Source: Escherichia coli
GTDB lineage: Bacteria; Pseudomonadota; Gammaproteobacteria; Enterobacterales; Enterobacteriaceae
Reading direction: 5' to 3' (one strand)
Length of the DNA: 64,000 nucleotides
Assembly: GCF_001677475.2 (NCBI RefSeq)
Contig: NZ_CP015229.1
Shown one piece after another: positions 3,813 through 41,600 of the stretch (positions within the stretch are counted from its first letter, which is position 1; every line of letters begins with the position of its first letter). Position numbers and translations under genes: made by a program. The notes below the pieces were generated by a model, which was not told where the DNA came from, did not search any database, and saw nothing but the letters and a program-made list of their open reading frames with translations.

Positions 3813-3836
3813 GATTACCTCTGCATCCTGGCGCAT

Positions 3837-5219: not shown

Positions 5220-5595
5220 AATTCACACCCTTATAAGGCTGGGAAAGCAGACGGAATCAAAACGAAACGCAACGTGCGAGATCGACTAACTGCACCATAT
5301 TCTCCTGAAATATGAAGATATACTGAAAACAAATAAGCGACTTAGGACAGTTTCAATCTACGCTACTGTTCTTCAGAAGAGTATAGCCCATCGTAATTAT
5401 TTTTCGGTGACAGCGAATATCGTATGTTTTTTCATATTCATACATTTTTATTAGGGGATTTATGGCTATTTAACTAAGTGTGGTTAATTGCGTGGTGAAT
5501 TTGACTTAAGTAAGCATGATTACTAGTGGGATATTTCAAGAGGGTAGCAAGCCGGTGGGTAAACCACCGGCTTGTCACAAAGTATGAATGGGAGT

Positions 5596-6915: not shown

Positions 6916-6990
6916 ATATGCTGGTTTCCGGTAAACAGATGTGCGCTCATTCTCGTACTTATCCCGGTTAAGTCAATACGACAGCGAGCA

Positions 6991-7020
6991 CGAAAAAGGG
7001 AGCGATTAATTATCGCTCCC
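6991..7020 (-). terminator. Intrinsic terminator downstream of gadC
   Basis: Hairpin gggagcgat-taat-tatcgctccc at 6998..7020 preceded on the plus strand by aaaaa (T5 on the transcript). Confidence 0.65.
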
Positions 7021-7045
7021 TTGTCTTATAACCATTCAGACATGG

Positions 7046-8581
7046 TTAGTGTTTCTTGTCATTCATCACAATATAGTGTGGTGAACGTGCACGCGGGTGC
7101 AGGAAGAAGTGACCTTTTGGTGCGTTCTGACTGTTGATTGGCTCCAGAGTGACGCCGGTATTCGCTTTGCCTTTACGATCATGAACAGCATAGAGAATAA
7201 AGGGCAGGGCAAGTACCACCAGGAAACTAACGACCAGTAATTCAACATACATATCGGTAGAGTCACCCTGGATGTTATCCGGCGGCAGGAAGGAAACAAT
7301 AAACGCCATAATTGAAGTCAGCAGACCGACAATAGCCACGACCAGTTTCACCCCTTTACCACCAGGGATATTAAATGTGCGTTTTAAGTCAGGATGTTTA
7401 AGAACCAACACAATGTAGCCAATAAACAGCATGAAATAAGCACACAGATAAATCACCACCGTCAGCGCCAGTGCGATCAGGAAGGACATGTTGTTACCGC
7501 CACCGGTATTGGTGAGGATGATCAACGCGATAGAAGTAATCACCAGCTGCGAAATGACCAGCGTTACCGGTACGCCATTTTTGTTCATTTTAGCGAATGC
7601 CGCTGGCAGCAGGTTTTTCTGCGCTGTGACATACATCCCGCGAGAAGGACCAACAATCCAGGAGGCGATTTCCGCCAAAACACCCAGCAACAACAGTGCG
7701 GAGATCACGCGAACCGTCCACTCAATTTCCGGTGCCACATGGGACATCAGAACGGTAAAGGTTTGCATTACCCCTGCGGAGAGGTTGATTTCATTACCCG
7801 GAATGACCATCGCAATAGACAAACCGCCAACAGAGCTTAAGCAGATTGCCGCCACCATCAGCAGTAACATAGCCAGTGGATAGTCGCGCCCGGGGTTGCT
7901 CATTTCATTGACGTGAGTTGCGGAAGCTTCTACGCCCATATAACTCAAAATGAAGGCAACAAATACAACCAGGGTGCCCACTTTAGAGAAGTCAGGGAAG
8001 AAGGTCTTCGAATCCATTTCGATAGCAACGGGGGCACCGGAGTGCAGATAAATAGCCGCTAATGCGATCAAAATAAATGCAGGTAACAGGATACCGGCGA
8101 AGAAGCCAACTTTAGCAATTCGTGCCGTGTATTTCGTGCCACCAAACTGCGTTAATGCCAGCGCCCAAAGAATGATGAGTGCTGCAATAGTTTTGGTAAT
8201 GGGGTCTTCATTCAGCGCTGGCCATTTCAGGATGTAGGAGAGTGCCCCTAACACGAAATAGAGCATCGGAATAAAACCAATGGCGATTTGCAGATAGCCA
8301 AATGAGATCGCTGCAAATCCCCATCTCGGCCCCAGAGTATTTGATACCCAGGCGAAGACACCACCTTCTTCCCAGCCGTCGACGGTGGCCATTTCCGCAG
8401 CACAAAGTCCCACGGGAATAAACCATAAAATCCCGCCTAATAGCAGGAAGAAGACTAATGAAAAGCCCGATGTTGCGAAGGTAGGGTATTCATAAACAGC
8501 CATTACCATCGATGCCGTTATGGCAAAAAAGCCGAGTAATGTGAGCTGCTTAGCTTTACCTGTCTGTACTGATGTAGCCAT
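7046..8581 (-). CDS. gadC: Glutamate:GABA antiporter
   Basis: 511-aa polytopic membrane [39 protein letters not shown]... recognised as GadC. Confidence 0.92.
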
Positions 8582-8690
8582 ATTATCCCCCTAAAACGGT
8601 ATTCCTGTCGGAACCGCACCTGTTTTGTTCTGAAGCGTATTCAGAACAATATTTTCCGTTGCTAATGCCAGTGAACAGACTTTGGAGATT

Positions 8691-8716
8691 GTCCCGAAAC
8701 GGGTTCGTTTCGGGAC
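8691..8716 (-). other. 11-bp perfect stem-loop in the gadB-gadC intergenic region
   Basis: gtcccgaaacg-ggtt-cgtttcgggac; no U-tract follows, so more likely a processing or stability element than a terminator. Confidence 0.5.
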
Positions 8717-8736
8717 ACCGTTACCGTTAAACGTTA

Positions 8737-10137
8737 TCAGGTATGTTTAAAGCTGTTCTGCTGGGCAATACCCTGCAGTTTCGGGTGATCGCTGAGATAT
8801 TTCAGGGAGGCTTTGTAGTCTTCCAGCAACAGTTCAGCAAAGTCCATTTCGAAGCCACGACGACACATAATGCGCATCACCACGATGTCAGTGGCTTCAC
8901 CGCCGAGAGTGAAGGCCGGAACCTGCCAGCCGCGCAGACGCAGACGTTCAGAGAGGTCGTAGAGGGTGTATCCCGGATCTTCACCATCTTTCAGTTTGAA
9001 GCAGACCGCCGGGATGCCTTCGTCCGGACGACCGGTACAGATGAACTCATACGGCCCCAGTTTGGCGATCTCATCCGCCAGATAGGTAGCGACCTGATAA
9101 GAGGCGTTCTGTACTTTGGTATAGCCTTCACGACCGAGGCGCAGGAATTCATAGTACTGTGCAATTACCTGACCCGCCGGGCGGGAGAAGTTGATGGCGA
9201 AAGTACCAATCTGACCACCGAGGTAGTCAACGTTGAACACCAGTTCCTGCGGCAGCGCTTCTTCGTCACGCCAGATAACCCAGCCGCAGCCCAGCGGAGC
9301 CAGACCGAATTTATGGCCTGAAGCACTGATCGATTTCACCCGCGGCAGGCGGAAGTCCCAGACGATATCCGGGGCAACGAACGGCGCCAGGAAGCCACCG
9401 CTGGCAGCGTCGATGTGCATGTCGATGTCGATACCGGTGTCGGCCTGGAATTTATCCAGCGCATCGTGCAGCGGTTGCGGGAACTCATAGTTACCGGTGT
9501 AGGTCACGCCGAAAGTCGGCACCACGCCGATGGTGTTTTCGTCGCAGGCTTCAATCATGCGTTTCGGGTCCATAAACAACTGACCGGGGCGCATAGGGAT
9601 CTCACGCAGCTCCACATCCCAGTAGCGGGCGAATTTATGCCAGCAGATTTGTACCGGACCGCACACCAGGTTTGGTTTATCCGTTGGTTTGCCTGCAGCT
9701 TCCATACGCTTGCGCCAACGCCATTTCATCGCCATCCCGCCGAGCATACAGGCCTCGGAAGAACCAATGGTGTTGGTGCCAACGGCCTGACCATTTTTCG
9801 GCGCAGGCGCATGCCACAGATCGGCAACCATATTTACGCAACGCAGGTCAATGGCTGCGGATTGCGGATATTCTTCTTTGTCGATCCAGTTTTTGTTAAT
9901 GGATAAATCCATCAATTTGTGGACATTTTCGTCGTCCCAGGTCTGGCAGAAAGTGGCCAGGTTCTGACGAGCGTTGCCATCAAGATATAATTCGTCATTG
10001 ATAATCTGGAATGCGACATCGTCGCGCATTTCGTGCAGCGGAAAACGTTTTGATTCTGCGATAGTGGAAATAGACTTCGCACCAAAACGTGAATCGAGTA
10101 GTTCCGACCTTAAATCCGTTACTTGCTTCTTATCCAT
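8737..10137 (-). CDS. gadB: Glutamate decarboxylase beta
   Basis: ORF 8737..10206; start trimmed to [24 protein letters not shown]... (466 aa) as in E. coli GadB; gadA is excluded by the gadC neighbour. Confidence 0.92.
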
Positions 10138-10216
10138 TTTAAACTCCTTAAAATGATTGGATCGCATTAAAAAAGTAGGATTTATCGATAAAGTAAGCAA
10201 GTGCAAAGGACTCGTG

Positions 10217-10236
10217 TTTAAATAACAAAATCCTAA
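10217..10236 (-). promoter_or_regulatory. GAD box (GadE/GadX-type binding site) upstream of gadB
   Basis: Minus strand reads TTAGGATTTTGTTATTTAAA, the 20-bp GAD-box consensus known from gadA/gadBC promoters (recalled from literature). Confidence 0.8.
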
Positions 10237-10454
10237 TGTTATTTATCGTGAGATATTACACGAATAATATTTTTTCATTGAAAAACAATATAATATGGAA
10301 TTCCTGGGTGGTGGTAAGGTGTTTTATGCTGTTATTTTTATGCGCATTATGTGCCTCCTGAATTATCACGTAAAAATCAGACCTTAAAATATCACTATTA
10401 GTACTTGGTTATTATTTTGAACGCATTTATAAAATTATTACATAAAAATAGCGA

Positions 10455-10492
10455 ATATTGATAAAATCCCCGCCAACGATGTGTTGACGGGG
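10455..10492 (-). terminator. Putative intrinsic terminator downstream of pqqL
   Basis: Imperfect hairpin ccccgccaac-gatgtg-ttgacgggg (10468..10492) followed on the transcript by attttatcaatat. Confidence 0.45.
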
Positions 10493-10498
10493 CTGTTA

Positions 10499-13294
10499 TT
10501 ATTTTGGCAATAATATTCCAGTATAAGTATTTACCGGATGAGAAAGATATTGTTTAACGGCAGTGTTAACATTCTCTACCGTCATTTGTTTCAACAATTG
10601 CTCCTGCTCAGTCCATGCTGCAGGATCGTCATATTGAATAAGACTATTTACAATAGTGTTCGCTAATTGTTGAACGCTACGCTGTTGGATATCGAGGCTG
10701 CGCTGAACGTTTTGCTGGTATTCATTCAGTTCTTGCTCACTGATCCCTTTAGCCAGACGCTTAACCATCACTTCATTCGCTAACGTTAACAGTTCATCAT
10801 GTCGTTCTGGTTGACAAGTAAAAGCCAGCAAATGACTGATATCTTTGGCCTCAGGATCAACCGAGAGGCGAGAAGAAACGCTGTATGCTCCAGATGCCTG
10901 TTCACGAATATTAACGCGTAGATCTTTTGCCAGTGCGACGTTAAAAGCATCGAGCGCCATACGCGTCTCCAGATTTACAGGTGTCCGGGAATCATAACGT
11001 TTCCACTGTGAAACCTGTGCCACAGGTTCATTTTGTTCTTTTACAGTAACCGATGCGTTGTCCGTCGCGCGAGTTAATGGTTTACCTGCGGCTAATGGCG
11101 AATCAGAGTGTTTGATTGATCCTAAGTAACGCGTAATTAACGCCACGAGTTTGTCTTCTGCGACATTACCGACAATGACAAACGTGATATCCGCTGGAGA
11201 TGAAAACAACTGGCGATCGGCAGCCAGCGCATCTGCGGCAGTAAACTGTGCAATCTGATTTTCTTGCAGTAATTTCGTGCGGTCATCAGCATAGCGCGTC
11301 TCATACATCTGCTGGGCGAATTTCTCCGCTGGACGCTGGTCGAGCGTTTTCAACGCCTGAATTTGAGCATTTTGTAGCGATGCCCAAATATTATCGTTAA
11401 TCGTGCTGTGGGTGATTCGCTGGTTAATCAACTGGAAACCAGGTTCAGGGTTATTAGTCCGCGTGCTAACAGAGAGCAATGTATTCATGCCACTGACTTT
11501 ACTGCTCATGGTTACCGAGTTTTCCGCACTCCAGCGTTTCAGGCTGGAAGAGGAGAGTTCACCAACGCCGCTTCCGCTTACTGCTTTATTTGCCAGCGCG
11601 ATAAGTGATTTTTGCTGCGCAGGGAAACTTAAATCGCCTTTATTAGATACGGCAGTAATTTGTAGCTTTTGCTCTTCACCCGCGGATTTTGCCAGAATAA
11701 CCCTGGCACCATTGGAAAGTGTTAATGATGTCAGATTCTCAGCCAGCGTTTCTTTGCTGCTAATTTCCGCCAGTGGGTCAGCGTCTACTGTTAACGATAA
11801 ATTTCTGCCTGGGAAGATGTAAGCCGCCAGCTTTTTGTTGGCGTACTCTTTTTCCAGCGCCAGGATAGCCGCAGGAGACAATGCTTTTTTGGCAGCAACC
11901 TCATTGTTTACCATTTGCTCCCAAAATGCATCCTGGTTCTTTCTTAACTGCTGCCATTTTTCCGCCAGACTTTGCACGGTAATTTGCTGCCACAGACGTT
12001 TCGAAAGTTGATATGTCTCTTCCGGCGACAAGAACGGCGTATTATTTAATGAGCTGGATGCCAGGCGACTGGTCAGCATACGTAAATCACGTTCAGCTTG
12101 CTGATCAACCGCATTTTTCAGCCAGGTGAGGCGGGTAGATTTGACATCATCGAGTTCTTCAGCAGAAAAACCATGCTGATCAATGGTTGCCAACTCTGCC
12201 ATTAATGCATTCGCAGCATCCTGCATATTATCGTCTCGTGCATTTACACGGAAAAACAGCGACTGATAATCGGGTGCAATTTTAACGCTGCGCGCAGTGC
12301 CGCCAGAAATAGTCTTCAACTCGCCCGACTGTATGCGTTCCTGCAGACGTTGATTGAACAGCTGAACTAACATGCTCCATTCCGCTTGTTCGATAAAGCT
12401 TTGCTCATCGTTCACTTGTACCATTGGCAGGCGATAATAGAGTGCGATGCCGTTCACCCGGTTTTCTTTATCATTAATGATATTAAAGCGCAGGTGATTT
12501 TCGGCTTTTGTCGGCCAGACGCGATTTTCAGCTGCTTTGTTAGCCGGAAGCTTACTTAAATTATCCTTTATCAGCGCCAGCGCTTCTTTACTGTCGATAT
12601 CGCCGACCACGATAAAGGTCATATTATTTGGTTGATACCAGCGTTGATAAAATTGGCGCAATTGTGCCGGTGTGACCGTGGCGACAGTATCCATCAGGCC
12701 GATAGGTTCACGGTCTAAATTACGGGTATTAGCCAGCAGGAAAGGGCGGCGCGCCTGAGAGGTGCGCCATTTCGCATCCTGATGGGCACGCCATTCCTCA
12801 GTAATTACGCCACGTTCAGCGTCAACTTCGAGTTTTTCAAAGGTTGCGGCATTACTCCATTCACTGAAGATTGCCATCACTTGTTGCAGATTTTGTTTCT
12901 GCGTAGTCGGCAAACTCACCTGATACACCGTTTCGTCATAGCTGGTATAGGCATTAACATCGCGACCAAAACGCAGGCCCATTGACTCAAATGTTTCGAT
13001 GACTTTATTACCCGGCCATGTTTTTGTGCCGTTAAACATCATATGTTCTACAAAATGAGCCACGCCGCGCTCATTGTCTTCTTCCTGCAATGAACCGGTA
13101 TGAATTTGCAGCCATAAATTTATCTGATCCTTTGGATGAGCATGCGGATAAATCATATATCGCAAGCCATTGTCCAGTTGCCCGGTAATTAACTTTTCAT
13201 CCTGCGGTAAGGCGGCGGCAATCAGCCGCCCGGGGAGCAACAGAGTTGCCACTAACGTCAGTAAGAAACAGAGGTTTCTCATAATTATCTCCAT
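10499..13294 (-). CDS. pqqL: Periplasmic M16-family zinc peptidase
   Basis: 931-aa ORF with signal peptide and HFVEH (inverted HXXEH) zinc motif; recognised as E. coli PqqL. Confidence 0.9.
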   Translation of the reverse strand: MEIIMRNLCFLLTLVATLLLPGRLIAAALPQDEKLITGQLDNGLRYMIYPHAHPKDQINLWLQIHTGSLQEEDNERGVAHFVEHMMFNGTKTWPGNKVIETFESMGLRFGRDVNAYTSYDETVYQVSLPTTQKQNLQQVMAIFSEWSNAATFEKLEVDAERGVITEEWRAHQDAKWRTSQARRPFLLANTRNLDREPIGLMDTVATVTPAQLRQFYQRWYQPNNMTFIVVGDIDSKEALALIKDNLSKLPANKAAENRVWPTKAENHLRFNIINDKENRVNGIALYYRLPMVQVNDEQSFIEQAEWSMLVQLFNQRLQERIQSGELKTISGGTARSVKIAPDYQSLFFRVNARDDNMQDAANALMAELATIDQHGFSAEELDDVKSTRLTWLKNAVDQQAERDLRMLTSRLASSSLNNTPFLSPEETYQLSKRLWQQITVQSLAEKWQQLRKNQDAFWEQMVNNEVAAKKALSPAAILALEKEYANKKLAAYIFPGRNLSLTVDADPLAEISSKETLAENLTSLTLSNGARVILAKSAGEEQKLQITAVSNKGDLSFPAQQKSLIALANKAVSGSGVGELSSSSLKRWSAENSVTMSSKVSGMNTLLSVSTRTNNPEPGFQLINQRITHSTINDNIWASLQNAQIQALKTLDQRPAEKFAQQMYETRYADDRTKLLQENQIAQFTAADALAADRQLFSSPADITFVIVGNVAEDKLVALITRYLGSIKHSDSPLAAGKPLTRATDNASVTVKEQNEPVAQVSQWKRYDSRTPVNLETRMALDAFNVALAKDLRVNIREQASGAYSVSSRLSVDPEAKDISHLLAFTCQPERHDELLTLANEVMVKRLAKGISEQELNEYQQNVQRSLDIQQRSVQQLANTIVNSLIQYDDPAAWTEQEQLLKQMTVENVNTAVKQYLSHPVNTYTGILLPK

Positions 13295-31278: not shown

Positions 31279-31711
31279 AATTCTCCAAAATCTATATTTA
31301 AGTAGCTGAATAAAGAGAGTTAACAATTAAGTCATTCTGTTATTGCTTATAAAACAAGAATCATTCTTGATTGGTTGTTGCCCTGAGAATATAGTTTCCA
31401 GGGTTATTACATTTCACGAAGAACGATAATATCTTTAAATCACAAGGACACCTAATCACAACAAGTTTATTGCTGCACTTGTTGGAGAGAGTATTTGCAA
31501 AAACATTTTATGGCGCTAAATAACATGACGATTTCATTATGCATGTTATTTATAAACCGTGACTAAACAGAATATTATTGCGGACAAGGGAAGTGTCAGG
31601 AAAGGTCAAGAGATACTAATGGTTTATATGGCTATAAATCATTAGTTATGGTTAATGTTTGCCTGGTGTAACTAACACGGAATTGCTCTAAACAGATAAG
31701 TGCAGGGTTTA

Positions 31712-32062
31712 TTAAAGCTGACCGACAGACTTTCTTAACCTGGTAATATCTCTCTTAGGTGACTCTCCAAACATCCGCGAATATTCCCGACTGAAATGGG
31801 ATAAGCTTTCGTAACCGACAGCATAGGCTGCAGTGGTGACATCGTAATGTTCATTCAGCATCGGTCGCCTGGCTTCATTGAGGCGTAGCCATTTCTGATA
31901 CCGGAGTGGACTCATTCCCGCAAGCTGTCTGAAGTGTTGATGGAAAGAGGGGGGTTCATTTGCACGCGGTTTGCCAGCCTGACTCTTCAACGCAGGGAAG
32001 ATGCGGCAAACGGCAAACCTGCATACCAGCCAGCCTATATCCGGTATGCACAGGCTAATCAT
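31712..32062 (-). pseudogene. yneL: AraC-family regulator fragment (HTH domain only)
   Basis: 116-aa ORF carrying only an AraC-type HTH (…LSHFSREYSRMFGESPKRD…) with no sensing domain; corresponds to the yneL remnant that flanks dif in K-12. Confidence 0.6.
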
Positions 32063-32141
32063 GAAAGAGGAGAGGCTTTATGTTCTTGAACCCTGAAGTA
32101 ATAACGACGACCGGAAAATCGCTTCGCATCACTCAAACTCA

Positions 32142-32169
32142 ATTTAACATAATATACATTATGCGCACT
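32142..32169. other. dif-like site, left junction (attL): host-like XerD arm, phage-like XerC arm
   Basis: ATTTAACATAA-TATACA-TTATGCGCACT; 27 of 28 identical to the reverse complement of E. coli dif (GGTGCGCATAATGTATATTATGTTAAAT, recalled); the single mismatch is the outermost base of the XerC arm. Confidence 0.85.
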
Positions 32170-32181
32170 AAGGTGCGCATA
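32160..32181 (+). repeat. 9-bp perfect inverted repeat of the XerC-binding arm
   Basis: TATGCGCAC-TAAG-GTGCGCATA; the left half is the XerC arm of attL, the right half an inverted copy; overlaps a 10-bp palindrome CGCATATGCG (32176..32185). Confidence 0.8.
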
Positions 32182-32202
32182 TGCGTATTCTGGAGGTGTG
32201 TC

Positions 32203-33066
32203 ATGGCTTGTACTCGTCCTTTGAACGCGTACCAAATGCCATCGGGGAAGATTTTTTTCACGCCGTCACGTGGCGCTAAATTCATTCAGTTGCCCTGTGG
32301 TCAGTGCATCGGTTGCCGTCTTGCTCATTCTCGTGACTGGGCGACCCGCTGCGTTCATGAAGCCCACATGCACGATCACAATTGTTTTATCACTCTGACT
32401 TATTCGCCTGAGAATTTACCTGAAGGCGGTACTCTCGTTCGTAAACATTTCACCGATTTTATGAAGCGTTTGCGTAAGGAATTAGATAAGGATGATGTGA
32501 AAATTCGTTATTTTGGCTGTGGTGAATATGGCTCTAAATTAGAGCGACCGCATTATCATGCGATTATTTTTGGTTATGATTTTCCGGATAAGACACTTTA
32601 TAAAGCGGGAAGATTTAATTTATTTAATTCCCCGCTTCTTTCGAGATGTTGGAATCTTGGTTGGGCTGTTATTGCTGGTTTTAGTTTTGAGTCGGCTGCT
32701 TATGTGGCGCGATACTGTGTTAAAAAAATCAACGGTTTCCGTGCAGATGAGCATTATGGACATCGCCTACCCGAGTTTTCGGCTATGAGTAATCGCCCAG
32801 GTATTGGGTATGATTTTTTTATGACCTATTACGAGGATATTGTTAATGCAGATGCGTGTATTGGTCGTGGCGGTCGTCAGATAAAACCGCCCCGCTATTA
32901 TGACAAGTTATTATCAGGCTGTGATTTGGAAAAGTTGCAGCAGAATAAAGAAAAGCGCCAGTTAAATGCCCGTGTATTAGACCCGTGGCGTTTGCAGGAT
33001 TTGGATAAGTTTAATCTGGTTAAATTCCAGCGAATGATGAGGAAATTAGAAGATGGCTCACTCTGA
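32203..33066 (+). CDS. Replication initiation protein (VP4, rolling-circle HUH endonuclease)
   Basis: Track ORF 32080..33066 trimmed to MACTRPLNAYQ… (287 aa) with GGAGG 6 nt upstream. Rolling-circle motifs: FITLTY, HYHAIIF (HUH), AAYVARYCVKK (catalytic Tyr pair), plus CGQCIGC. Confidence 0.9.
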   Translation: MACTRPLNAYQMPSGKIFFTPSRGAKFIQLPCGQCIGCRLAHSRDWATRCVHEAHMHDHNCFITLTYSPENLPEGGTLVRKHFTDFMKRLRKELDKDDVKIRYFGCGEYGSKLERPHYHAIIFGYDFPDKTLYKAGRFNLFNSPLLSRCWNLGWAVIAGFSFESAAYVARYCVKKINGFRADEHYGHRLPEFSAMSNRPGIGYDFFMTYYEDIVNADACIGRGGRQIKPPRYYDKLLSGCDLEKLQQNKEKRQLNARVLDPWRLQDLDKFNLVKFQRMMRKLEDGSL

Positions 33067-33322
33067 TGCAGTTTATGTAATTCATGACAAGCTGATTGCG
33101 GCTGATGTTTTTATGTTTATGGCCCAGCATGATGGTATTGCGAAAGGCAATTTGCACGCGTTCTGTAACCGTATGCAGCGCACTGACTTTGTGCTGTACC
33201 GTGTGACGGCTTATGACTTTGAAGACCAGCAGCTCGTCCCCGTGGACATTGACCGCGTTTATATTTGCACCGCTTTCCCTGCCATGCTGGAGAATGCCCA
33301 AGATGAAATCCTTGAAGCGTAA
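33053..33322 (+). CDS. Small phage protein, VP5-like
   Basis: 89-aa ORF overlapping the VP4 3' end and the VP3 start; assigned by size and position in the gokushovirus gene order, not by motif. Confidence 0.6.
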   Translation: MAHSDAVYVIHDKLIAADVFMFMAQHDGIAKGNLHAFCNRMQRTDFVLYRVTAYDFEDQQLVPVDIDRVYICTAFPAMLENAQDEILEA

Positions 33323-33815
33323 GTTCCATACCCGCTATGACCCGCCGCCGTCGCCCGGCATCGAGTTCAAAGAACCCACGATGACCCAGCAGCATTTCCG
33401 CGATGAGTGCGACATCAACAAGATTGTTGAGCGTGCGATAAGAACGGGAGATACGACAGTCTTTACCAGTGCTCAACGTGCTGATTTCTACGATGCATCT
33501 TCGATTACTGACTACGTGGACGCAATGGCTTTAATTGACGACGTTAACGACGACTTTAACAGCCTGCCGTCCACGATTCGCTCGATGTTTGGTAATAACG
33601 TTAAGCAGTACGTTGAGTGGATGAGTAATCCCGCGAACTGGAATAAAGCCCGTGAGCTTGGATTGTTGAGCGGCGGAGAGGAGTCGGCGACCGAACGCGC
33701 CAGCGTTCGCGAGTCGAGTCCTGCTCCGGCGTCCCCGCGGGAGCGTGAGCGGACTTCGGAGAGTTCCCCGAAGGGGGAGTCGGAGAAGTCTGCGAATAAT
33801 GATGCAGGCTCATGA
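33303..33815 (+). CDS. Internal scaffolding protein, VP3-like
   Basis: ORF 33213..33815; likely start MKSLKRKFHTRYDPPPSPGIEF… (33303, or 33294); acidic Ser/Glu-rich C-terminus. Assigned by position and size. Confidence 0.6.
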   Translation: MKSLKRKFHTRYDPPPSPGIEFKEPTMTQQHFRDECDINKIVERAIRTGDTTVFTSAQRADFYDASSITDYVDAMALIDDVNDDFNSLPSTIRSMFGNNVKQYVEWMSNPANWNKARELGLLSGGEESATERASVRESSPAPASPRERERTSESSPKGESEKSANNDAGS

Positions 33816-33855
33816 GCTGCATGAAAAAAACCTGAAGACGGCTCCGGCCCTTCAG

Positions 33856-33892
33856 CCTGGCACAGTGGCCCTCTTGATGTAACTGTGCCAGG
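33856..33892 (+). repeat. 11-bp perfect stem-loop in the VP3-VP1 intergenic region
   Basis: cctggcacagt-(15 nt)-actgtgccagg. Confidence 0.8.
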
Positions 33893-33904
33893 TGACACCG
33901 AAAC

Positions 33905-33932
33905 TTACAGGCGGCTCCCACGAAGCCTGTAA
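33905..33932 (+). repeat. 8-bp stem-loop in the VP3-VP1 intergenic region
   Basis: ttacaggc-(12 nt)-gcctgtaa. Confidence 0.75.
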
Positions 33933-33992
33933 AAAGGTGTCAGTTTATACAGTAGTTTGTGTAGTATTTAAACAATTCCCTGAGGGGGGTTT

Positions 33993-35705
33993 ATGAGTAA
34001 ATTCGGTCGTAAAGTACCTAGTAATGCAAAAAGTCAGCATAATTTTTCAGTAATCCCGAGTGCCAATATTCAGCGTTCGGTCTTTAACCGCAGCTCTGGT
34101 TATAAAACCACTTTTGACGCTGGTTATTTGATTCCCGTGTTTCTGGATGAGGCTTTGCCGGGTGATACATTCCACCTGAAAACGTCCATACTGGCGCGTT
34201 TATCCACGCCAGTGGTGCCGTTTATGGATAACCTGCGACTGGACATCCAGTATTTTTCCGTGCCCTACCGTCTGGTCTGGGATAACTGGCAGAAATTCAA
34301 CGGTGAACAGAAGAATCCTGGCGATTCGACGGATTACCTTATTCCGCAGATTAAAGCCCCTGCTGGCGGCTTCCCTGTAGGCTCCCTTGCCGATTATTTT
34401 GGTGTTCCCACAGGTGTGGAGAATATCAGTGTAAGCGCCCTGCCGTTCCGCGCTTATAACCTGATTTATAACGAGTGGTATCGTGATGAAAACCTGATTA
34501 ATTCCGCCCCGCTTCCGCTTGGCGATGAGGAAGAAACAGGCCTCGCCAATTTCCCGCTGCGTAAGCGTGCCAAGCGTCACGATTACTTCACAAGTGCTCT
34601 GCCGTGGCCTCAGAAGGGTGAAGGCGTTGAGATTGGTTTAGGCGTTCCGCCGTCGTATACGCTCGATTTCCCGACCTATCCTGATGGTCTGCCGTTTGTT
34701 TCTTATGGCGTTGGTGTCGATGGAGATATGACTTCGCACAATCCGACTTATCTTGCCCGTAATAATGTTAACGAAGGCTCATCATACGAGGCCTATGGTA
34801 ATGCGGTTTATATGAGTGACGGCAGGAATCCCAGCAATCCGCTGGAATGGCCTCCTATGTCGCCCTCCACTGGACGTATTGATGTTATTGGTGGTTTTAG
34901 CAGAAACCAGCCTCCGGTTACGTTAAATAAGCAAGGTGGTGAAGTTGTCGATAATCTGACAATTAACTCGCTGCGTCAGGCGTTCCAGCTTCAGCGGCTG
35001 CTTGAGCGCGATGCTCGCGGTGGTACTCGCTATATTGAGATTATCCGCTCCCACTTTGGCGTTATTTCGCCTGATGCCCGTGTACAGCGTCCCGAGTATC
35101 TCGGCTCTGGTTCATTCGACATAAATATTAATCCTGTTCTTCAAAACTCCGCGACGACCGACGCAAGTCCGCAAGGCAACCTCGCGGCCTATGGTGTCTC
35201 CGGTGGTGTTAACCGTGGATTTTCTCATTCTTTTGTGGAGCACTGTTTTGTTATTGGCCTTGTTAGCGTTCGTGCTGACCTGACCTACCAGCAAGGCATC
35301 CCGCGCATGTTCTCCCGCCAGACCCGCTTTGATTTCTACTGGCCTGCACTGGCTCACCTGGGCGAACAGGCTATCCTTAACAAGGAGATTTACGCGCAAG
35401 GCAACGACAAGGATGATGAAGTATTTGGCTACCAGGAACGTTACGCGGAGTACCGCTACCGACCGTCTCAGATTACTGGTAAATTGCGTTCTACCGACCC
35501 GCAATCCCTCGATGTGTGGCATTTAGCCCAGCGGTTCGACTCTCTGCCCGCACTGAATCAGGAGTTTATCGAGGAGAATCCACCGATGAAGCGCGTCCTC
35601 GCCGTACAGGACGAGCCTCAGTTCATCATGGATGCGTTCTTCGACCTGAAGTGTGTGCGGCCTATGCCTGTTTACTCAGTACCAGGTCTTATCGATCATT
35701 TCTAA
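33993..35705 (+). CDS. Major capsid protein (VP1, Microviridae F-protein family)
   Basis: 570-aa ORF MSKFGRKVPSNAKSQHNFSVIPSANIQRSVFNRSSGYKTTFDAGYLIPVFLDEALPGDTF…, closely resembling the conserved N-terminal block of gokushovirus VP1 (recalled Chlamydia-phage pattern …IQRS.F.RS.G.KTTFDAGYLIP…PGDTF…); RBS GAGGGGGG. Confidence 0.9.
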   Translation: MSKFGRKVPSNAKSQHNFSVIPSANIQRSVFNRSSGYKTTFDAGYLIPVFLDEALPGDTFHLKTSILARLSTPVVPFMDNLRLDIQYFSVPYRLVWDNWQKFNGEQKNPGDSTDYLIPQIKAPAGGFPVGSLADYFGVPTGVENISVSALPFRAYNLIYNEWYRDENLINSAPLPLGDEEETGLANFPLRKRAKRHDYFTSALPWPQKGEGVEIGLGVPPSYTLDFPTYPDGLPFVSYGVGVDGDMTSHNPTYLARNNVNEGSSYEAYGNAVYMSDGRNPSNPLEWPPMSPSTGRIDVIGGFSRNQPPVTLNKQGGEVVDNLTINSLRQAFQLQRLLERDARGGTRYIEIIRSHFGVISPDARVQRPEYLGSGSFDININPVLQNSATTDASPQGNLAAYGVSGGVNRGFSHSFVEHCFVIGLVSVRADLTYQQGIPRMFSRQTRFDFYWPALAHLGEQAILNKEIYAQGNDKDDEVFGYQERYAEYRYRPSQITGKLRSTDPQSLDVWHLAQRFDSLPALNQEFIEENPPMKRVLAVQDEPQFIMDAFFDLKCVRPMPVYSVPGLIDHF

Positions 35706-35722
35706 GTTACATTGTCACTTTT

Positions 35723-35745
35723 GGCCTCTGCGGAGGCCTTTTTTT
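35723..35745 (+). terminator. Intrinsic terminator/attenuator after the capsid gene
   Basis: ggcctc-tgcg-gaggcc followed by TTTTTTT. Confidence 0.7.
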
Positions 35746-35759
35746 CATGAGGTGAAATT

Positions 35760-36542
35760 ATGGGCTTTTTATCATCTGCCATTGGTGCCGCTGGTTCTAT
35801 TGCCGGCTCCCTGCTTGGTGCGAACTCTGCGAAGGATTCAGCTAACCGTGCCAATAAGTTAACGATGGATTTGGCCAAAAACGGCATCCAGTACCGTGTG
35901 CAGGATTTACGGAAAGCTGGCCTTAACCCCATTCTGGCCGTTACTGGTTCCGGTGGTCTTGGTTCCGTCAGTTCGTCAGGTATTCAGGCCGCCCAGCCTG
36001 CCGATTTTTCTGGTGTGGTTAATTCTGCGGTCAGCGTATTTGACGCATTAACGAAGCGTCAGCAGCAGGAAGTCGCTAAGGAAGGCATCATGTCCCAGAT
36101 TGCGTTACAACGTAACCAGATTGCGAATAGCGCGGCTGATGTGAAGCTCAAAGAGGCTCAGGCTGCGCAAGCCTTATCTTCCATTTCTACTGGTAATGCC
36201 CAGACTAATTTGATTAATCAGCAGGCTTTGACCGAGGCTTCCCGCCGTGCCAATATTGAAGCACAGACGGGCCTTAGTTCTGCGCAGCGGATTAGAACAC
36301 AGTATCAAACTGTACAGGACAAGGTTTTGGCTGATTATTTGAATACACCGATTGGAGCTGAAAGTGCACGTGTCAATATGGATGCTTCTCGCGGTGGTAT
36401 CGTTGGCGGCGTTAATACTTTTCTGCGTTCTTTGCAACGTGATTACCCGTCTAACTCGAACTCTGCGAAGAAAGTAAACAAGGGGGGAACCTTCCCCCCT
36501 TCACAGTTCCAACAGCAATTGATTAATAACTATCGGAGGTAA
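35760..36542 (+). CDS. Minor capsid / DNA pilot protein (VP2-like)
   Basis: 260-aa ORF with Gly/Ala/Ser-rich N-terminus (MGFLSSAIGAAGSIAGSLLGANSA…) and Gln/Ala-rich predicted coiled region; RBS GAGGTG; position after VP1. Confidence 0.7.
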   Translation: MGFLSSAIGAAGSIAGSLLGANSAKDSANRANKLTMDLAKNGIQYRVQDLRKAGLNPILAVTGSGGLGSVSSSGIQAAQPADFSGVVNSAVSVFDALTKRQQQEVAKEGIMSQIALQRNQIANSAADVKLKEAQAAQALSSISTGNAQTNLINQQALTEASRRANIEAQTGLSSAQRIRTQYQTVQDKVLADYLNTPIGAESARVNMDASRGGIVGGVNTFLRSLQRDYPSNSNSAKKVNKGGTFPPSQFQQQLINNYRR

Positions 36543-36543
36543 T

Positions 36544-36663
36544 ATGGCTCGTTCTCGCCGTCGTATGTCCAAGCGTTCTTCCCGTCGTTCGTTCCGTAAG
36601 TACGCAAAGACGCATAAACGTAACTTTAAAGCCCGCTCTATGCGTGGTGGAATTCGTCTTTGA
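36544..36663 (+). CDS. Small basic DNA-binding protein (VP8 / J-like), absent from the ORF track
   Basis: ATG at 36544, stop TGA 36661..36663; translation MARSRRRMSKRSSRRSFRKYAKTHKRNFKARSMRGGIRL (39 aa, roughly 40% Arg/Lys). Confidence 0.7.
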   Translation: MARSRRRMSKRSSRRSFRKYAKTHKRNFKARSMRGGIRL

Positions 36664-36693
36664 TTGACAAAGTTGATCGTAACGATCTATGAT
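36664..36693 (+). promoter_or_regulatory. Putative sigma70 promoter at the prophage right end
   Basis: TTGACA (36664..36669), 18-bp spacer, TATGAT (36688..36693); the spacer contains GATCGTAACGATC with two GATC sites. Pattern match only. Confidence 0.35.
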
Positions 36694-36716
36694 AATTATC
36701 GTAAGTCGTTGTTTTT

Positions 36717-36744
36717 GTTAAACTAAATATACATTATGCGCACC
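36717..36744. other. dif-like site, right junction (attR): phage-like degenerate XerD arm, host-like XerC arm
   Basis: GTTAAACTAAA-TATACA-TTATGCGCACC; XerD arm 7 of 11, central region 6 of 6, XerC arm 11 of 11 versus dif. Confidence 0.8.
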
Positions 36745-36820
36745 AACATAAACCAAGGGAGAATCCAGTCGTTGGCGGTCATGATTGTCCTGCTCATTAA
36801 CAACGGCCAAACCCCATATC

Positions 36821-38143
36821 TTACTTAATACCGTATTCTCGGCTTAACCGACGGTGCAACCTCAACACATTGGTTTCAACTGCCGTCACCACGTTCTTCG
36901 GAAAATCTGTCGGTAATGAAGTCTTCACGTTATCCAGTGCTGCCGGAATCATTCTGGCAAAGTCACTCAGGATTTCATGCATCTGCACTTCCGGAAATTT
37001 CAGCACCTTTGCTGTCGCCAGAAAATGTCGCGGATAAATTTTATCGATTGCCGTTTTTTTGCCTTTGGATGAGTTAAGCCCCATTGCCAGTTTGAGATCG
37101 CTAATGTGTATTCCTGCGCCACCCAATACCGGAAATGCTGAAATGATGTCGTAAAATGGCGTGAGTCGATAACTGCCGCCAGCCTGAATAAATACGGAGA
37201 AGTTTTTTGCATGGCCATCCGTTGCGCCAATCAACCACTGGAACACCTGAAACTTCATAAAATCATAGCGATCTTTCAGCGCCTCGCTGGACCCCATCAA
37301 AAAAGCCATGATCCGCGCGATACCTGGGCCTCCATCTGATTCATATTTCACCGATGAAGGTAAACCGAATGTCTGACACATATCCTCCTGTGGCAAGCGA
37401 AGTAAAACCGTTCGCTCAGCATTCCAACGCCTGTCAAAACGTTCGACCGCTAACGCACGCACATTTCCCGCTTTAATGATTTCTGCGTCCGGCACATTCA
37501 ACCCAAGTTCTTTCGCCAGCAGCAGACAGTAATACTCATTATCAACGCTTTGGCTGAGATCGAGCGTCGCATTGGGCTGCCTGATTTCGCCAATCGGTAA
37601 TTTAATGATGTGTGTCGTCGGCGTTATTCCTTTCGGAATGCACCAGTCATTGCCTATTCTGAGCAGCGCTGTCTTCTCCTGCGCGCCAGCAACCGAGATG
37701 CGAAAGTCATTTTCTTCTCTAATCATGCCTAGAGGGATATCTGCTTTATAAGCCGTTAATACTTCTTCAAGCCTGGCTTCAGTGAGCTGCTCCCATGCCA
37801 TTATCGGGCGCGTTATGGTTTCATTTTCGGGTAATAACGTTACGGCACCAACGCTGTCTCGCCCTATTTCTGACAATAAATCAAACGGTTGTCTGGATTT
37901 AGCATGATAACGTTTAACGATCCGGTCACGTACAATCGGGCTATCGGGTAGCAGGTTATCGAAGAAGTTAAATACGGCATCAGAGGTGATATTCCCCCTC
38001 TGCAATGGCAGCGAAAGTGACAACGGTCTGGCATAACGGTTAGCTAACCACTCCGGTGCATACTTAAAGGTGTGCGCGCCATTGGCTAACTTCGTTAACT
38101 CGCCTACCCGCTGGTTGTTCATCCAAGTGACAAGTTTAGGCAT
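36821..38143 (-). CDS. hipA: Ser/Thr kinase toxin HipA
   Basis: ORF 36821..38200 trimmed to MPKLVTWMNNQRVGELTKLANGAHTFKYAPEWL… (440 aa); start overlaps the hipB stop by 1 nt. Confidence 0.92.
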   Translation of the reverse strand: MPKLVTWMNNQRVGELTKLANGAHTFKYAPEWLANRYARPLSLSLPLQRGNITSDAVFNFFDNLLPDSPIVRDRIVKRYHAKSRQPFDLLSEIGRDSVGAVTLLPENETITRPIMAWEQLTEARLEEVLTAYKADIPLGMIREENDFRISVAGAQEKTALLRIGNDWCIPKGITPTTHIIKLPIGEIRQPNATLDLSQSVDNEYYCLLLAKELGLNVPDAEIIKAGNVRALAVERFDRRWNAERTVLLRLPQEDMCQTFGLPSSVKYESDGGPGIARIMAFLMGSSEALKDRYDFMKFQVFQWLIGATDGHAKNFSVFIQAGGSYRLTPFYDIISAFPVLGGAGIHISDLKLAMGLNSSKGKKTAIDKIYPRHFLATAKVLKFPEVQMHEILSDFARMIPAALDNVKTSLPTDFPKNVVTAVETNVLRLHRRLSREYGIK

Positions 38144-38409
38144 TACCACTCCAGATCTTGCTGTTCTGTTGATTCTGGCGAGGCATTTTTCGTGTCGCAT
38201 AGCGTCATTGAGAGTTCAAGCGACTGTAAAATCTTAAAAAATGTCGTGAGCGTGGTATTGTCAGGGTTGTTTTCGAAATTGGAAATTGTCGCCTGCTTAA
38301 TACCGATTTTTTTCGCCAGCTCGCTCTGCGTCCAGCCATTTTGCTGACGAACCAGTTTCATTGCATTCGCTAATTGCGTTGGGCTATAAATCTTCTGAAA
38401 GCTCATCAT
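38143..38409 (-). CDS. hipB: Antitoxin and HTH repressor HipB
   Basis: ORF 38143..38427 trimmed to MMSFQKIYSPTQLANAMKLVRQQNGWTQSELAKKIGIKQATISNFENN… (88 aa). Confidence 0.9.
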   Translation of the reverse strand: MMSFQKIYSPTQLANAMKLVRQQNGWTQSELAKKIGIKQATISNFENNPDNTTLTTFFKILQSLELSMTLCDTKNASPESTEQQDLEW

Positions 38410-38430
38410 GTCATACGTCCATAGCAAATT

Positions 38431-38544
38431 TATCCGCTCAAGGGGATATTATCAGTTTTATCCTTTAGTGGGGATAAAGTCAATCAGGAAACACATTTTA
38501 TCCGCTCTACGGGATAAACGCTGCGATATCCGCGATCGCGGATA
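38431..38544. promoter_or_regulatory. Four HipB operators upstream of hipBA
   Basis: TATCC-N8-GGATA at 38431..38448 (TATCCGCTCAAGGGGATA), 38459..38476 (TATCCTTTAGTGGGGATA), 38499..38516 (TATCCGCTCTACGGGATA) and 38527..38544 (TATCCGCGATCGCGGATA). Confidence 0.9.
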
Positions 38545-38619
38545 AAAAGGAGAATTTAAAAGTCGTTTGAAGTCGGCAATATTAAGCCGCATGCCATCTC
38601 TACATGCGGCTTATACGGT

Positions 38620-41600
38620 TTACCAGCTATATTTAACACCCAGCATGCCCTGAGTATCGCTATAGCCTTTATCACCTAGTTGCACACCGACATTCCCCCA
38701 CAGGCTAAGGTTGTTATTTACTTTCGCCTCAACCCCGGTACGTACTTCACCGAGATTACGCGCACCATCACGGCTTACGGTTTGACCATTCATCTTCACG
38801 GCGTAGACTTTGCTGTTGTTGATCCAGTTCGCTTCAATGTAAGGCTGGAACTCACGCTGTTTACCATTGTCACGCTGGTGATGACTGTTCAGGTAGGTTT
38901 TCACCCCAAGCCGCGTTTGCACGTTTCCGTCACCTTCCGTTTCAATGCGTGTTCCGTCTTTCCGGGTATGGTCAGAATTTTTCACACCCATCCAGGTGAT
39001 TTGCACCTGTGGCTGGACGTACCAGGTATTCAGCGTCCCTTCGCTGCCGCTAAATATTCCCGCTTCAAAGGTATACCCACCCTCAACAGAGGCCGTCAGA
39101 CCGCGAGAATCATAGTCGTCAGCAGAACGGTTATCGGAACTGACGCTGTTATCAAACCAGTTATACAGCGCCCAGCTGTCAACATAAGCGCCGGTCTTAT
39201 TCGCATCGTTCTGATACCAGGTCGCGTAAATCCCAGCGCTGTACCCGCTGATGCGCCCATCCGATTTATAACCCACACGATTACTCTGAGTATTACTGTG
39301 CTGATTGGCATAGCCTGCCATAATGCCGAGGTGCCAGCGATCCTGCGCGTTGCTACTCCACTGCGCCAAATCGCCGCCTAGATGCAATACATAGCGGTTA
39401 GCCTGAGTATTTAGCTGACCGTCACCGGTCCTGAAACGTTCGTGCCCCCCGACATGACGCATCCACATACTGCTTGCTGCACCCTGAGAATGCAGTGAAT
39501 CTGCATACTGTGGCTCACCCAGACGGTCGTGTAAGCGATGGCTAAACAGCGAGTTAGCTGCGGCAATGTTGCTGATATAGCTTCCGGCCTCCGGGCGATA
39601 AACTGATGGGCCTTCCGGATCCACAACAGGGGGATTATTAATGGGATCGGGTGTATCCGGTGGCGTTACGCCGTCCCATTTACTGGTCAGATACCAGTTT
39701 TTCTCGTCATTCCCCTTCCCTTTAGCCAGCGTGTAGACGTATGCCCCAGCTTCGACAGTTCCGGTGGTCAGCGCGAAGTTACCTGCAGAATTACCGCCAA
39801 CCTCAATGAGTTCAATACCGTTGACCGTATGTGCACCGACGCCGCCAATGTTATCAACCCGAACGCGAGTGCTTCCTTGTGTATCGCCTTTCACGTTCAT
39901 CTTATCGGTGGGCGAATTATCGCCGCCCAGCGTCGCGTTGAACGTTATCAGGCCATTGTTTCCGGTATCGTTGCCGTTAACGGTCAGTACATTCCCCGGT
40001 TTTCCTCCTTCACTATTCATTTGAACCGTGCCGCCATTCTCCAGATTGCCGCCGATAGTGGTTTTGGCGACACGCAGTGTCCCCCCAGACATAACGTTCA
40101 CATCACCTGCAGTGGTGACATTTCCCGACATCACACCGCTGTTGTGGATATTAATGTGCTGACTTGCCATATTAATGGCAGAGTCGGAACCGAAAGCAAT
40201 TTCACCACCCACGATATCCGTCGTACCCTTATACGTCGCGGAATCGTTGTTAAGAGTCAGGATCCCGGTCCCCAGTTTTGTCACATCACCGCTACCGCTG
40301 ATACTGTGCGTCATCGCCCAGCTACGCTCAGTGGAGATGGTGAGCAGGCCATTATTGATAACGGAAGCATCACCCAGGTTTTTCTGCTCGTTGACGCTGA
40401 GCGCGCTACCTGCATCGATGTTGAATTGCCCCACAAAGCGGCTATTATCGCCATCCAGCTCTACATCTGTCCTGGCGGTTGCGCTCACGATACCCTTCCC
40501 GCTTATGCTATTACGCAGTTCGCCAGTCACGTTTTTTAGCGTTAACAGACCGTCATTGGCAATATTTCCTCTGCCTAACCCCTGCGTATTATCGAGGCTG
40601 ACTTCCGCATTTGGGCTAACGCTGGTTAACGCATTGTAGCGTGCATTAAGCCCCTCGATAGCCAGCGTTCCCCCTGTAACATTCAGATTACCGCCACCTG
40701 TCAGTTCACCCTGACTGATCCCACCTTTATTTACCGTCAGCGCCCCCTCTTTGAACAAAACAGTCGAACCCATCTGCCCGGTGAATGTCTCTACCGTCTG
40801 CGTCGATCCATTAAGATCGACGATGGCCGCGTTGCGGATGTTCAGTTCCCGGGTGTTGCCCAGCGCGCCATCCGCATCGGTACGTAATGTCCCCATCTGA
40901 ACATAGGTTGCCCCCTGATAGTCGTTCTGACCGTTGGAAAGCGAAACCTGTCGCACCGTATTGATTGCCAGATCCCCTTCACCACCGATTTTTGCCGACA
41001 TATCGGCCGTTGCGCCATAGGCTCCGCCATGTTCGGCTAACGTCAGCTTTTGCCCACCATGGATGTTCAGCGCTTTCAGCCCATAGTTAACATACAAACC
41101 ATCACCAGGTACGGTCGTGAGGCGGAATCCATAATCACCCTCGGCGACCACTGTTCCGTTTTGTGCAATGTGTAACGTTTTGTCCGCTTCCACCTCGTCG
41201 CCCTGTAAATCACGTAACGTTAATGAGCCACCCGACCCAATAACCGTTTGCGCCTTCACCAGTTGAACGCCGACATGGCTATCATCGTGTTCCAGCAAAT
41301 TGAGCGTCGTCAGAGGGTTATTCGCCATGGGATCATTCCACGGTTTAGGCACGTCGATAAGCACGTCGCCCGTCCCGTTTACCTGATAGTTACGGCCTTT
41401 CCAGGTGTAGTCACCCGCGCCGACAACCAGCGTATCGACGCTGATATATCCCTCCGCAAGCGTCGCAGCAGGTATATCCGTATCGAAAGTGAGCGTACCG
41501 CCATTCATGGCTAGTCCACCAATGGATTGCTCTCCCACTTTTACCGATGTGGTATTTTCACTGTCAGACTGAAGCATCGCGTGAGTAAGCGCAGCGGTGT

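Follow-up and report, generated by a model that had tools for sequence, protein, structure and literature searches.

Why should a small prophage carry a near-consensus promoter at its very end, directed out of the phage genome and towards the 3' end of a chromosomal toxin gene? The question is raised by a stretch of 64,000 nucleotides of Escherichia coli DNA (the window), in which a promoter-like sequence at the end of a prophage faces the gene hipA across the phage attachment site. A preliminary description of this DNA suggested that an antisense transcript started there could modulate expression of the HipA toxin, and would thereby link a prophage to the control of persistence. We argue below that the element is probably a phage promoter parted from its gene by integration, and that its encounter with hipA looks incidental.

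The window belongs to the terminus region of the E. coli chromosome, with a fimbrial operon and a yneL remnant on the left and hipA, hipB and a large autotransporter gene on the right. Between the fimbrial/yneL side and the hipBA side lies an element of 4575 bp with six genes, all on the + strand, in the order vp4-vp5-vp3-vp1-vp2-vp8:

32203-33066, + strand: vp4, rolling-circle replication initiator, 287 aa from an ATG preceded by GGAGG (PF23343)
33053-33322, + strand: vp5
33303-33815, + strand: vp3
33993-35705, + strand: vp1, major capsid protein
35723-35745, + strand: intrinsic terminator after vp1, rated good in a terminator consensus scan
35760-36542, + strand: vp2, pilot protein
36544-36663, + strand: vp8, basic DNA-binding protein of 39 aa, the last prophage gene

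Capsid and Rep domains of the Microviridae (PF23343, PF09675 and PF02305) are found in these products, and the element shares its six genes with Escherichia phage EC6098, to which it is 91.9% identical at the nucleotide level over 88% of the query. The annotation of EC6098 places the vp4 start 14 codons earlier (32161), within a dif arm. The element is an EC6098-like prophage of the genus Enterogokushovirus (Microviridae), integrated at dif by the host recombinases XerCD. The 4575 bp contain no integrase gene and no open reading frame beyond the six, among which no repressor is recognisable. Integration at dif by XerCD has been shown experimentally for EC6098 (Kirchberger & Ochman 2020, eLife, PMC7062461), and prophages of this type excise continually in culture (PMC7062461). 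They are also rare: the query is matched by 5338 of 5426 complete E. coli genomes, mostly over its chromosomal half only, and the prophage junction is present in five of the 5426.

The borders of the prophage and the chromosomal genes beyond its right end are as follows:

32142-32169, - strand: attL, a hybrid dif, AGTGCGCATAA-TGTATA-TTATGTTAAAT, with one mismatch to the E. coli dif
32160-32181, + strand: inverted repeat TATGCGCAC-TAAG-GTGCGCATA, formed by the XerC arm and an inverted copy of it
36717-36744, - strand: attR, a hybrid dif, GGTGCGCATAA-TGTATA-TTTAGTTTAAC
36745-36820: chromosomal spacer of 76 nt from dif to the hipA stop, of equal length in prophage-free K-12
36821-38143, - strand: hipA, intact, 440 aa, stop codon at 36821-36823
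38143-38409, - strand: hipB, antitoxin gene, intact, 88 aa

In attL, the canonical chromosomal XerD arm and central region are combined with a phage XerC arm that carries one change; in attR, the canonical chromosomal XerC arm and central region are combined with a phage-type XerD arm that is degenerate, with four mismatches in 11 positions. Of the two sites, attL is the more dif-like. Homology with prophage-free E. coli chromosomes begins at 36726, and the empty site of prophage-free K-12 is a single dif, 76 nt from hipA. When the attP of EC6098 and this empty site are set against attL and attR, the arms are found to be swapped reciprocally, as expected of XerCD recombination within the central region. 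The inverted repeat lies between attL and the vp4 start, and is part of the vp4 leader in the circular form of the phage.

Such an arrangement is familiar from the elements that exploit XerCD to integrate at dif (IMEX), among them CTXphi, VGJphi, TLCphi and the gonococcal genetic island (GGI). The prophage resembles elements with TLCphi/GGI-type sites in that the central region of attP is identical to dif, the XerD arm is degenerate and a phage-proximal hybrid site remains after integration; it differs in that IMEX are filamentous phages or islands, for which effects of end promoters on neighbouring genes are not a defining trait. IMEX at dif are discussed in the report on EC6098 (PMC7062461), whose phage agrees with ours in gene order, in the use of host XerCD at dif, and in having a near-canonical dif at one border and a phage-type dif motif at the other. 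EC6098 also carries the identical promoter-like sequence between vp8 and its dif motif.

This sequence lies in the 53-nt non-coding gap between vp8 and attR:

36664-36693, + strand: sigma-70-type promoter-like element TTGACA-18-TATGAT, 11 of 12 matches to consensus
36675-36687, unstranded: palindrome GATCG-TAA-CGATC inside the promoter spacer, with two Dam GATC sites
36694-36716, + strand: phage-derived start of the predicted outward transcript, which is vp4 leader in the circular form

The preliminary description was right about this element and its direction. The -35 hexamer TTGACA (36664-36669, one base past the vp8 stop) matches the sigma-70 consensus at all six positions, and the -10 hexamer TATGAT (36688-36693) at five of six, with A2 and T6 present. 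The spacing of 18 nt falls inside the 17 +/- 1 range of sigma-70 promoters; lacUV5 also has an 18-nt spacer, and such spacing is thus compatible with strong activity. Neither an UP element nor an extended -10 is present in the element. The first base after the -10 hexamer is 36694, and transcription is predicted to start at about 36700-36702 on the + strand.

A scan of both strands of the 64-kb window returns no other site with at least 11 of 12 matches. Markov-1 random sequences of matching composition yield 1.08 sites of this quality per 64 kb on both strands, and the consensus match by itself is unremarkable; what is notable is its position in the 53-nt non-coding gap, for which, on one strand, the chance expectation is about 4.5e-4. 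Scored with a position-weight matrix, the element reaches 14.1 bits and ranks first both in the window (next 12.7 bits) and in the phage genome (next 10.0 bits). It is likewise the best sigma-70-like site in two other sampled loci, L001 and L002.

That roughly one such site per 64 kb is expected by chance lends some weight to a different reading of the gap, namely that the promoter match is secondary or fortuitous and that the spacer between vp8 and dif serves a function at the DNA level, centred on the palindrome GATCG-NNN-CGATC: a replication or packaging signal, an element sensitive to Dam and SeqA, or an accessory site for XerCD. We hold this to be unlikely. A fortuitous match of 14 bits, in the correct orientation and in the one non-coding gap that precedes vp4, is improbable at the expectation given above, and the stem of the palindrome is weak (-4.1 kcal/mol, z -1.08). 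The two roles are, moreover, not mutually exclusive.

Downstream of the element, the path of the predicted transcript crosses attR and runs towards the hipA stop on the opposite strand, as had been described. The absence of a terminator-like hairpin before hipA also holds: no intrinsic terminator is found by the consensus scan on the + strand from 36694 to 38500, and predicted folds are no more stable than those of shuffled sequences (36698-36900 on the + strand, z 0.38; 36690-36860 on the - strand, z 1.06). No Rfam match at E <= 1 is obtained across 31500-39000. Since none of the six phage genes can be recognised as a repressor, constitutive outward transcription from the predicted promoter at the prophage end is plausible.

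The likely purpose of the element becomes apparent once the ends of the prophage are joined. The circular genome of EC6098 reads vp8-TGA-TTGACA-18-TATGAT, then 22 nt, then the dif motif (attP), a short leader with GGAGG, and vp4. In this form only, the promoter-like element lies in non-coding DNA about 80 nt upstream of vp4 and in the same orientation; in the lysogen there is no co-oriented gene downstream of it. We therefore regard the element, with moderate confidence, as the promoter of vp4, and probably of the block vp4-vp5-vp3, in an EC6098-like phage, orphaned by integration. The replicative form would present, in order, the vp8 stop, the promoter, attP, a leader of about 80 nt, GGAGG and vp4. 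Because attP sits between promoter and gene, recombination of attP with the chromosomal dif by host XerCD would separate the two: vp4 would come to lie at the left prophage end without a promoter, and the promoter would stay at the right end, reading outward. Since the hipA 3' end occupies that side of dif in Escherichia, the orphaned promoter would then be convergent with hipBA. Its likely product would be an untranslated RNA from about 36701 that crosses attR and becomes antisense to hipA after about 120 nt.

What remains upstream of vp4 in the lysogen is modest: within 650 nt, all + strand sites are weak, at most 9.1 bits. A 12.5-bit + strand site at 31367, in chromosomal DNA, could read into vp4, and given this site vp4 may not be fully silent in the lysogen. 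Carriers that hold EC6098 as circular DNA only release significantly more phage than integrated lysogens (PMC7062461), a difference that fits lower expression in the integrated state and is no proof of it. The stronger proposition that one promoter serves the whole phage goes too far: other clades conserve a candidate upstream of vp1, GTGTCA-17-TATAGT (with TGTAGT as its -10 in the window), and the locus L087 has two further sites that score as high as the promoter element.

The proposed arrangement has counterparts among well-studied systems. In phiX174, another member of the Microviridae, the sigma-70 promoter P_A follows the last structural gene and lies just upstream of the gene for the rolling-circle initiator. 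The position after the structural genes and before the initiator gene is thus the same, whereas phiX174 is strictly lytic, has no att site and shows no sequence homology to the spacer discussed here. Promoters at the tips of mobile elements are known from IS10 (pOUT) and from the junctions of IS911 and IS30, where they transcribe host DNA or are joined to a gene of the element upon circle formation. Our element is similar in reading into neighbouring DNA, or in being coupled to a gene of its own once the circle is formed; in the junction promoters, however, each end contributes one of the two hexamers, while here the whole promoter lies on one side of the crossover. A well-documented parallel is Porf7 of Tn916, which reads outward from one end of the element, the genes that it serves, including those for rolling-circle replication, being at the other end (PMC11658703) and expressed after circularization (Celli & Trieu-Cuot 1998, cited in PMC11658703). 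Both elements have a promoter that points outward at one end and served genes that point inward at the other. Tn916 is a conjugative element of 18 kb that encodes its integrase and has an antiterminator, an insulating terminator and a promoter under regulation; the prophage is a 4.6-kb element of a single-stranded DNA phage that depends on host XerCD, has no known regulator, and whose promoter activity is predicted. Neither the EC6098 report (PMC7062461) nor the later literature searched mentions hipA, phage promoters or transcription, and in this literature we found no link between gokushovirus prophages and hipA and no promoter mapping for EC6098. The location of attP between promoter and vp4, with its consequence for the lysogen, is likewise not described there, and is a reading from sequence on our part.

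If the element is the vp4 promoter, it should leave traces in relatives. We sampled 24 loci from the clade, using only the vp8 end and the dif core as anchors; a few of them are one genome fetched twice (L001 and L007; L089 and L184). The spacers between the anchors fall into four types:

Type A, 15 loci: TTGACA-18-TAYGRT; includes the window, EC6098 and L127, from another host
Type A', 1 locus (L179): TTGACA-18-TAATAT
Type B, 5 loci: -10 removed by a 12-nt deletion, -35 replaced by TCAAAT
Type C, 3 loci: gap between vp8 and dif of only about 20 nt

A further variant, D, is seen in L006, apart from the anchored set. The promoter hexamers are kept in 16 of the 24 sampled loci (types A and A') and missing in eight (five of type B, three of type C). 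Across type A, a set recovered again when loci are selected by the anchors alone, four of 53 non-coding columns vary, compared with 13 of 39 third-codon positions in vp8 (Fisher p = 0.0024). The -10 occurs as TATGAT, TACGAT and TATGGT: A2 and T6 are always retained, and it is the least constrained hexamer positions that change. The type A' locus differs from type A at five of the 18 spacer bases and at several downstream positions, and still has TTGACA, followed after 18 nt by a -10-like TAATAT in which positions 1, 2 and 6 of the hexamer are retained. This pattern supports the view that a promoter is under constraint in the A and A' lineages.

The same comparison bears on the proposed DNA-level role of the spacer. 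Conservation in type A covers the entire spacer, which also outside the hexamers varies less than synonymous sites do, and the palindrome is its most widely kept part: it alone is common to types A, A' and B, with a loop that varies (TAA, TAT or TGA). An alternative function at the DNA level could therefore account for the conservation of the type A spacer. Against it, type A' preserves its -35, spacing and key -10 positions amid diverged surroundings, and the palindrome is absent from types C and D and so is not essential to the family. A role for the palindrome as a general gokushovirus origin was discarded, as only spacers of types A, A' and B contain it.

The eight loci of types B and C also indicate that the family can do without this promoter. 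In type B the best remaining candidate is a 10.9-bit site overlapping dif. To judge from these spacers, enterogokushoviruses can express vp4 by other routes, for instance by read-through from vp2-vp8 or from the weak dif-overlapping site (10.9 bits), and in types C and D the layout requires transcription to read through from vp8 into vp4. Most non-temperate gokushoviruses, known from metagenomes, have the vp4 start at the vp8 stop or a few nucleotides from it; as these relatives lack a spacer, the vp8-vp4 spacer with promoter and attP is specific to the temperate clade.

Read-through of this kind offers another account of transcription towards hipA, in which the outward RNA would mainly be the extended late transcript of vp1-vp2-vp8, and would be general to enterogokushovirus lysogens of any spacer type. 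That non-temperate relatives and types C and D have little or no spacer between vp8 and vp4 implies co-transcription, with no terminator after vp8, and in the window no convincing terminator is found from vp8 to attR. A good intrinsic terminator nevertheless follows vp1 (35723-35745), no strong promoter precedes vp1 or vp2 in the window (10.0 bits at best, for a site inside vp2), and the upstream genes would themselves be severed from the strongest promoter in the integrated state. It seems doubtful, then, that late read-through is the principal source, and an orphaned vp4 promoter remains our preferred explanation of the element.

We now turn to hipA. In the 18 sampled Escherichia loci (16 distinct after removal of duplicates), vp8 always adjoins hipA, and six of these 18 lack the promoter; thus six of the eight promoter-less loci adjoin hipA as well. 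As XerCD recombine in one direction only and dif is 76 nt away from hipA, it is necessarily this end of the prophage that comes to lie beside the gene in any Escherichia lysogen. In L187, from a more divergent Escherichia, the spacer between dif and hipA is longer. In L127, from a different host, the identical promoter type faces an unrelated co-directional open reading frame with an HTH_32 domain. The juxtaposition of promoter and hipA thus looks like a consequence of the position and polarity of dif, and not a property of the phage.

The outward RNA itself would have a skewed composition where it meets hipA:

36778-36910, + strand: rut-like, C-rich and G-poor stretch of the predicted outward RNA, C/G 1.5-2.27 in 78-nt windows

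The C/G ratio reaches 2.27 (78-nt windows) where the RNA crosses the hipA stop, and no convincing ribosome-binding site is found on it. A 30-codon open reading frame that begins at an ATG in the XerC arm of attR (36736-36828) was rejected as spurious, since it lacks a Shine-Dalgarno sequence and K-12 does not share its stop. Untranslated antisense RNAs with a C>G profile are usually terminated by Rho within a few hundred nucleotides. As the predicted RNA is untranslated and C-rich and G-poor across the hipA stop, Rho would probably halt it within a similar distance, and its antisense overlap with hipA may be short.

These observations bear directly on the regulatory role proposed at the outset, in which a functional cis-antisense RNA would alter the stability, translation or transcription of hipA mRNA, through cleavage of the duplex by RNase III or through collision of polymerases, and lysogeny would change the level of HipA and the frequency of persisters. 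The geometry behind this proposal stands: the outward, near-consensus promoter is convergent with hipA, about 120 nt from its stop, with the + strand free of intrinsic terminators up to 38500; the six phage genes include no recognisable repressor; and each sampled Escherichia lysogen has this prophage end adjoining hipA. For modulation of HipA and a link to persistence, the support is positional. The promoter is accounted for by its role within the phage, prophages of types B and C sit at the identical position without it, and in L127 it faces an unrelated gene. The predicted RNA is untranslated, with a rut-like C>G stretch at the hipA stop, and the most to be expected of an overlap confined to the 3' end of hipA, the distal gene of an autorepressed operon, is a lowering of HipA. 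Deletion of hipBA changes persistence only slightly. A prophage that is rare (5 of 5426 genomes) and continually excised (PMC7062461) leaves little room for selection of a host-regulatory function. We thus consider a functional antisense RNA improbable, and the suggested connection between prophage and persistence looks incidental: the promoter can be explained from within the phage, is missing in eight of 24 loci, and faces another gene in another host.

Comparison with type I toxin-antitoxin systems leads in the same direction. Antisense RNAs such as that of hok/sok belong to the toxin locus itself, cover the 5' region of the toxin mRNA or its translation signals, and are conserved along with the toxin. 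The RNA predicted here would resemble them in coming from the strand opposite a toxin gene; it differs in overlapping a 3' end, in concerning a type II toxin, in originating from a foreign element and in not being conserved among lysogens. The antisense element is absent from non-lysogens and from type B and C lysogens beside hipA, and is not conserved with the toxin locus.

The state of hipA in lysogens could be taken as a further hint, as the gene is disrupted in two of about 16 distinct lysogen loci (an internal stop in L087; a product of 284 aa in L180). This number is not significant, as at least one of 25 non-lysogens among the matches listed (H12) has a truncated hipA too; decay of hipA in lysogens was thus set aside. 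Convergent transcription may slightly affect hipA mRNA, and a regulatory role is unsupported; any effect on hipA is probably a small by-product. More improbable still is the full chain in which the orphaned promoter would be constitutively active, lower full-length hipA mRNA relative to hipB, through its transcript or through polymerases that converge, and let type A lysogeny shift HipA and persister formation. Were this true, the effect would be limited to type A enterogokushovirus lysogeny and not extend to types B or C, and a single-stranded DNA phage of 4.6 kb would, by its frequent XerCD excision, make individual cells differ in a toxin-antitoxin system.

For hipA and persistence, the significance of this locus is therefore small, as nothing suggests selection for the juxtaposition. 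For the enterogokushoviruses it may be larger. The prophage family, its mode of integration, outward promoters and excision-coupled expression are already known. With six genes and no recognisable repressor or integrase, these phages pose the question of how a prophage is kept quiescent, and separation from a promoter would be a simple answer. With attP placed between the strongest promoter and vp4, integration by XerCD would disconnect the replication initiator gene and excision would reconnect it, with types B and C, which lack the promoter, as natural controls. An orphaned vp4 promoter is in this way a possible repressor-free silencing mechanism for the prophage, which would apply the logic of Tn916 to the smallest known temperate phages.

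Further sequence features in and around the integrated Enterogokushovirus are located in the window as follows:

31367-31395, + strand, TTGATT-17-TATAGT, which resembles a promoter and, at 12.5 bits, ranks third among such sites of the window
32080-33066, open vp4 frame, a mechanical ORF of 328 aa
32160-32181, inverted repeat TATGCGCAC-TAAG-GTGCGCATA with a 9-bp stem, in which the XerC arm recurs in inverse orientation immediately after attL/attP
33816-33992, non-coding vp3-vp1 intergenic region, 177 nt
35723-35745, + strand, intrinsic terminator, GGCCTCTGCGGAGGCC then TTTTTTT
36482-36499, G6-N4-C6 hairpin AAGGGGGGAACCTTCCCCCCTT inside the 3' end of vp2
36675-36687, palindrome GATCG-TAA-CGATC in the promoter spacer, with two Dam sites (GATC) 9 nt apart

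The first of these sites, within the regulatory DNA of the fimbrial operon, is directed through the yneL remnant toward attL and vp4. No stop codon precedes the vp4 frame, which therefore extends past attL into the chromosome without interruption. The record of the related phage EC6098 places the vp4 start at an ATG within the XerC arm of dif; the ATG at 32203, which follows a GGAGG and is the start used by PGAP, is more likely to be the genuine one. The inverted XerC-arm repeat also occurs in EC6098 and in the related prophage locus L008, is partial in L004 and is missing from mar4. When the phage DNA is single-stranded, this repeat would fold into a hairpin presenting a duplex XerC arm; in the lysogen it lies between the chromosome and vp4, the position expected of an insulator. 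L004 (Intestinirhabdus alba NZ_WMJZ01000007.1, ~2600-11250) holds two different gokushovirus prophages in tandem at one dif locus, with vp4 at 2661 and 6947 and vp8 at 6790 and 11101. An internal dif-like site thus joins the vp8 end of the first prophage to vp4 of its neighbour.

Alignment of prophages with spacer types A, B and C, which are classes of the gap between vp8 and dif, shows the 177-nt vp3-vp1 region to be nearly unchanged, its conservation exceeding that of coding DNA. It contains a number of inverted repeats (GAAGACGGCTCCGGCCCTTC; CCTGGCACAG...CTGTGCCAGG; ACAGGCGGCTCCCACGAAGCCTGT) as well as a possible promoter, GTGTCA-17-TATAGT, whose -10 element reads TGTAGT in the window. This region is likely a replication or priming signal, or a regulatory region of vp1. 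A clean intrinsic terminator stands 18 nt 3' of the vp1 stop, ahead of vp2. The GATC palindrome, whose second GATC touches the -10 hexamer, is conserved in spacer types A and A' and also in type B, which has no promoter; its loop varies. The heptamer ATCGTAA is directly repeated, with copies at 36676 and 36698.

Beyond attR, the adjoining hipA is inactivated in two lysogens, a sample too small for comparison with the background rate: L087 (E. coli E9, NZ_CP104500.1) has an internal stop at codon 234, and L180 (GCA_958325165.1) has ~314 nt missing and a shortened product of 284 aa.

The vp2 hairpin sits in a variable portion of the gene and is retained in all enterogokushovirus clades among the sampled loci (L001 4292, L002 5943, L087/L088 5957, L090 2468, L008 3732, and L127 on the - strand), with variable loop and flanks. 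Directly 3' of it, on the + strand, L087, L088 and L008 carry TGTTTTTCC, giving a terminator-like arrangement; the T-rich tail of the window's hairpin belongs to the - strand, where it could block read-through from hipBA into the prophage. Alternatively, the hairpin may act as a signal in single-stranded DNA, for example as a complementary-strand origin or for packaging.
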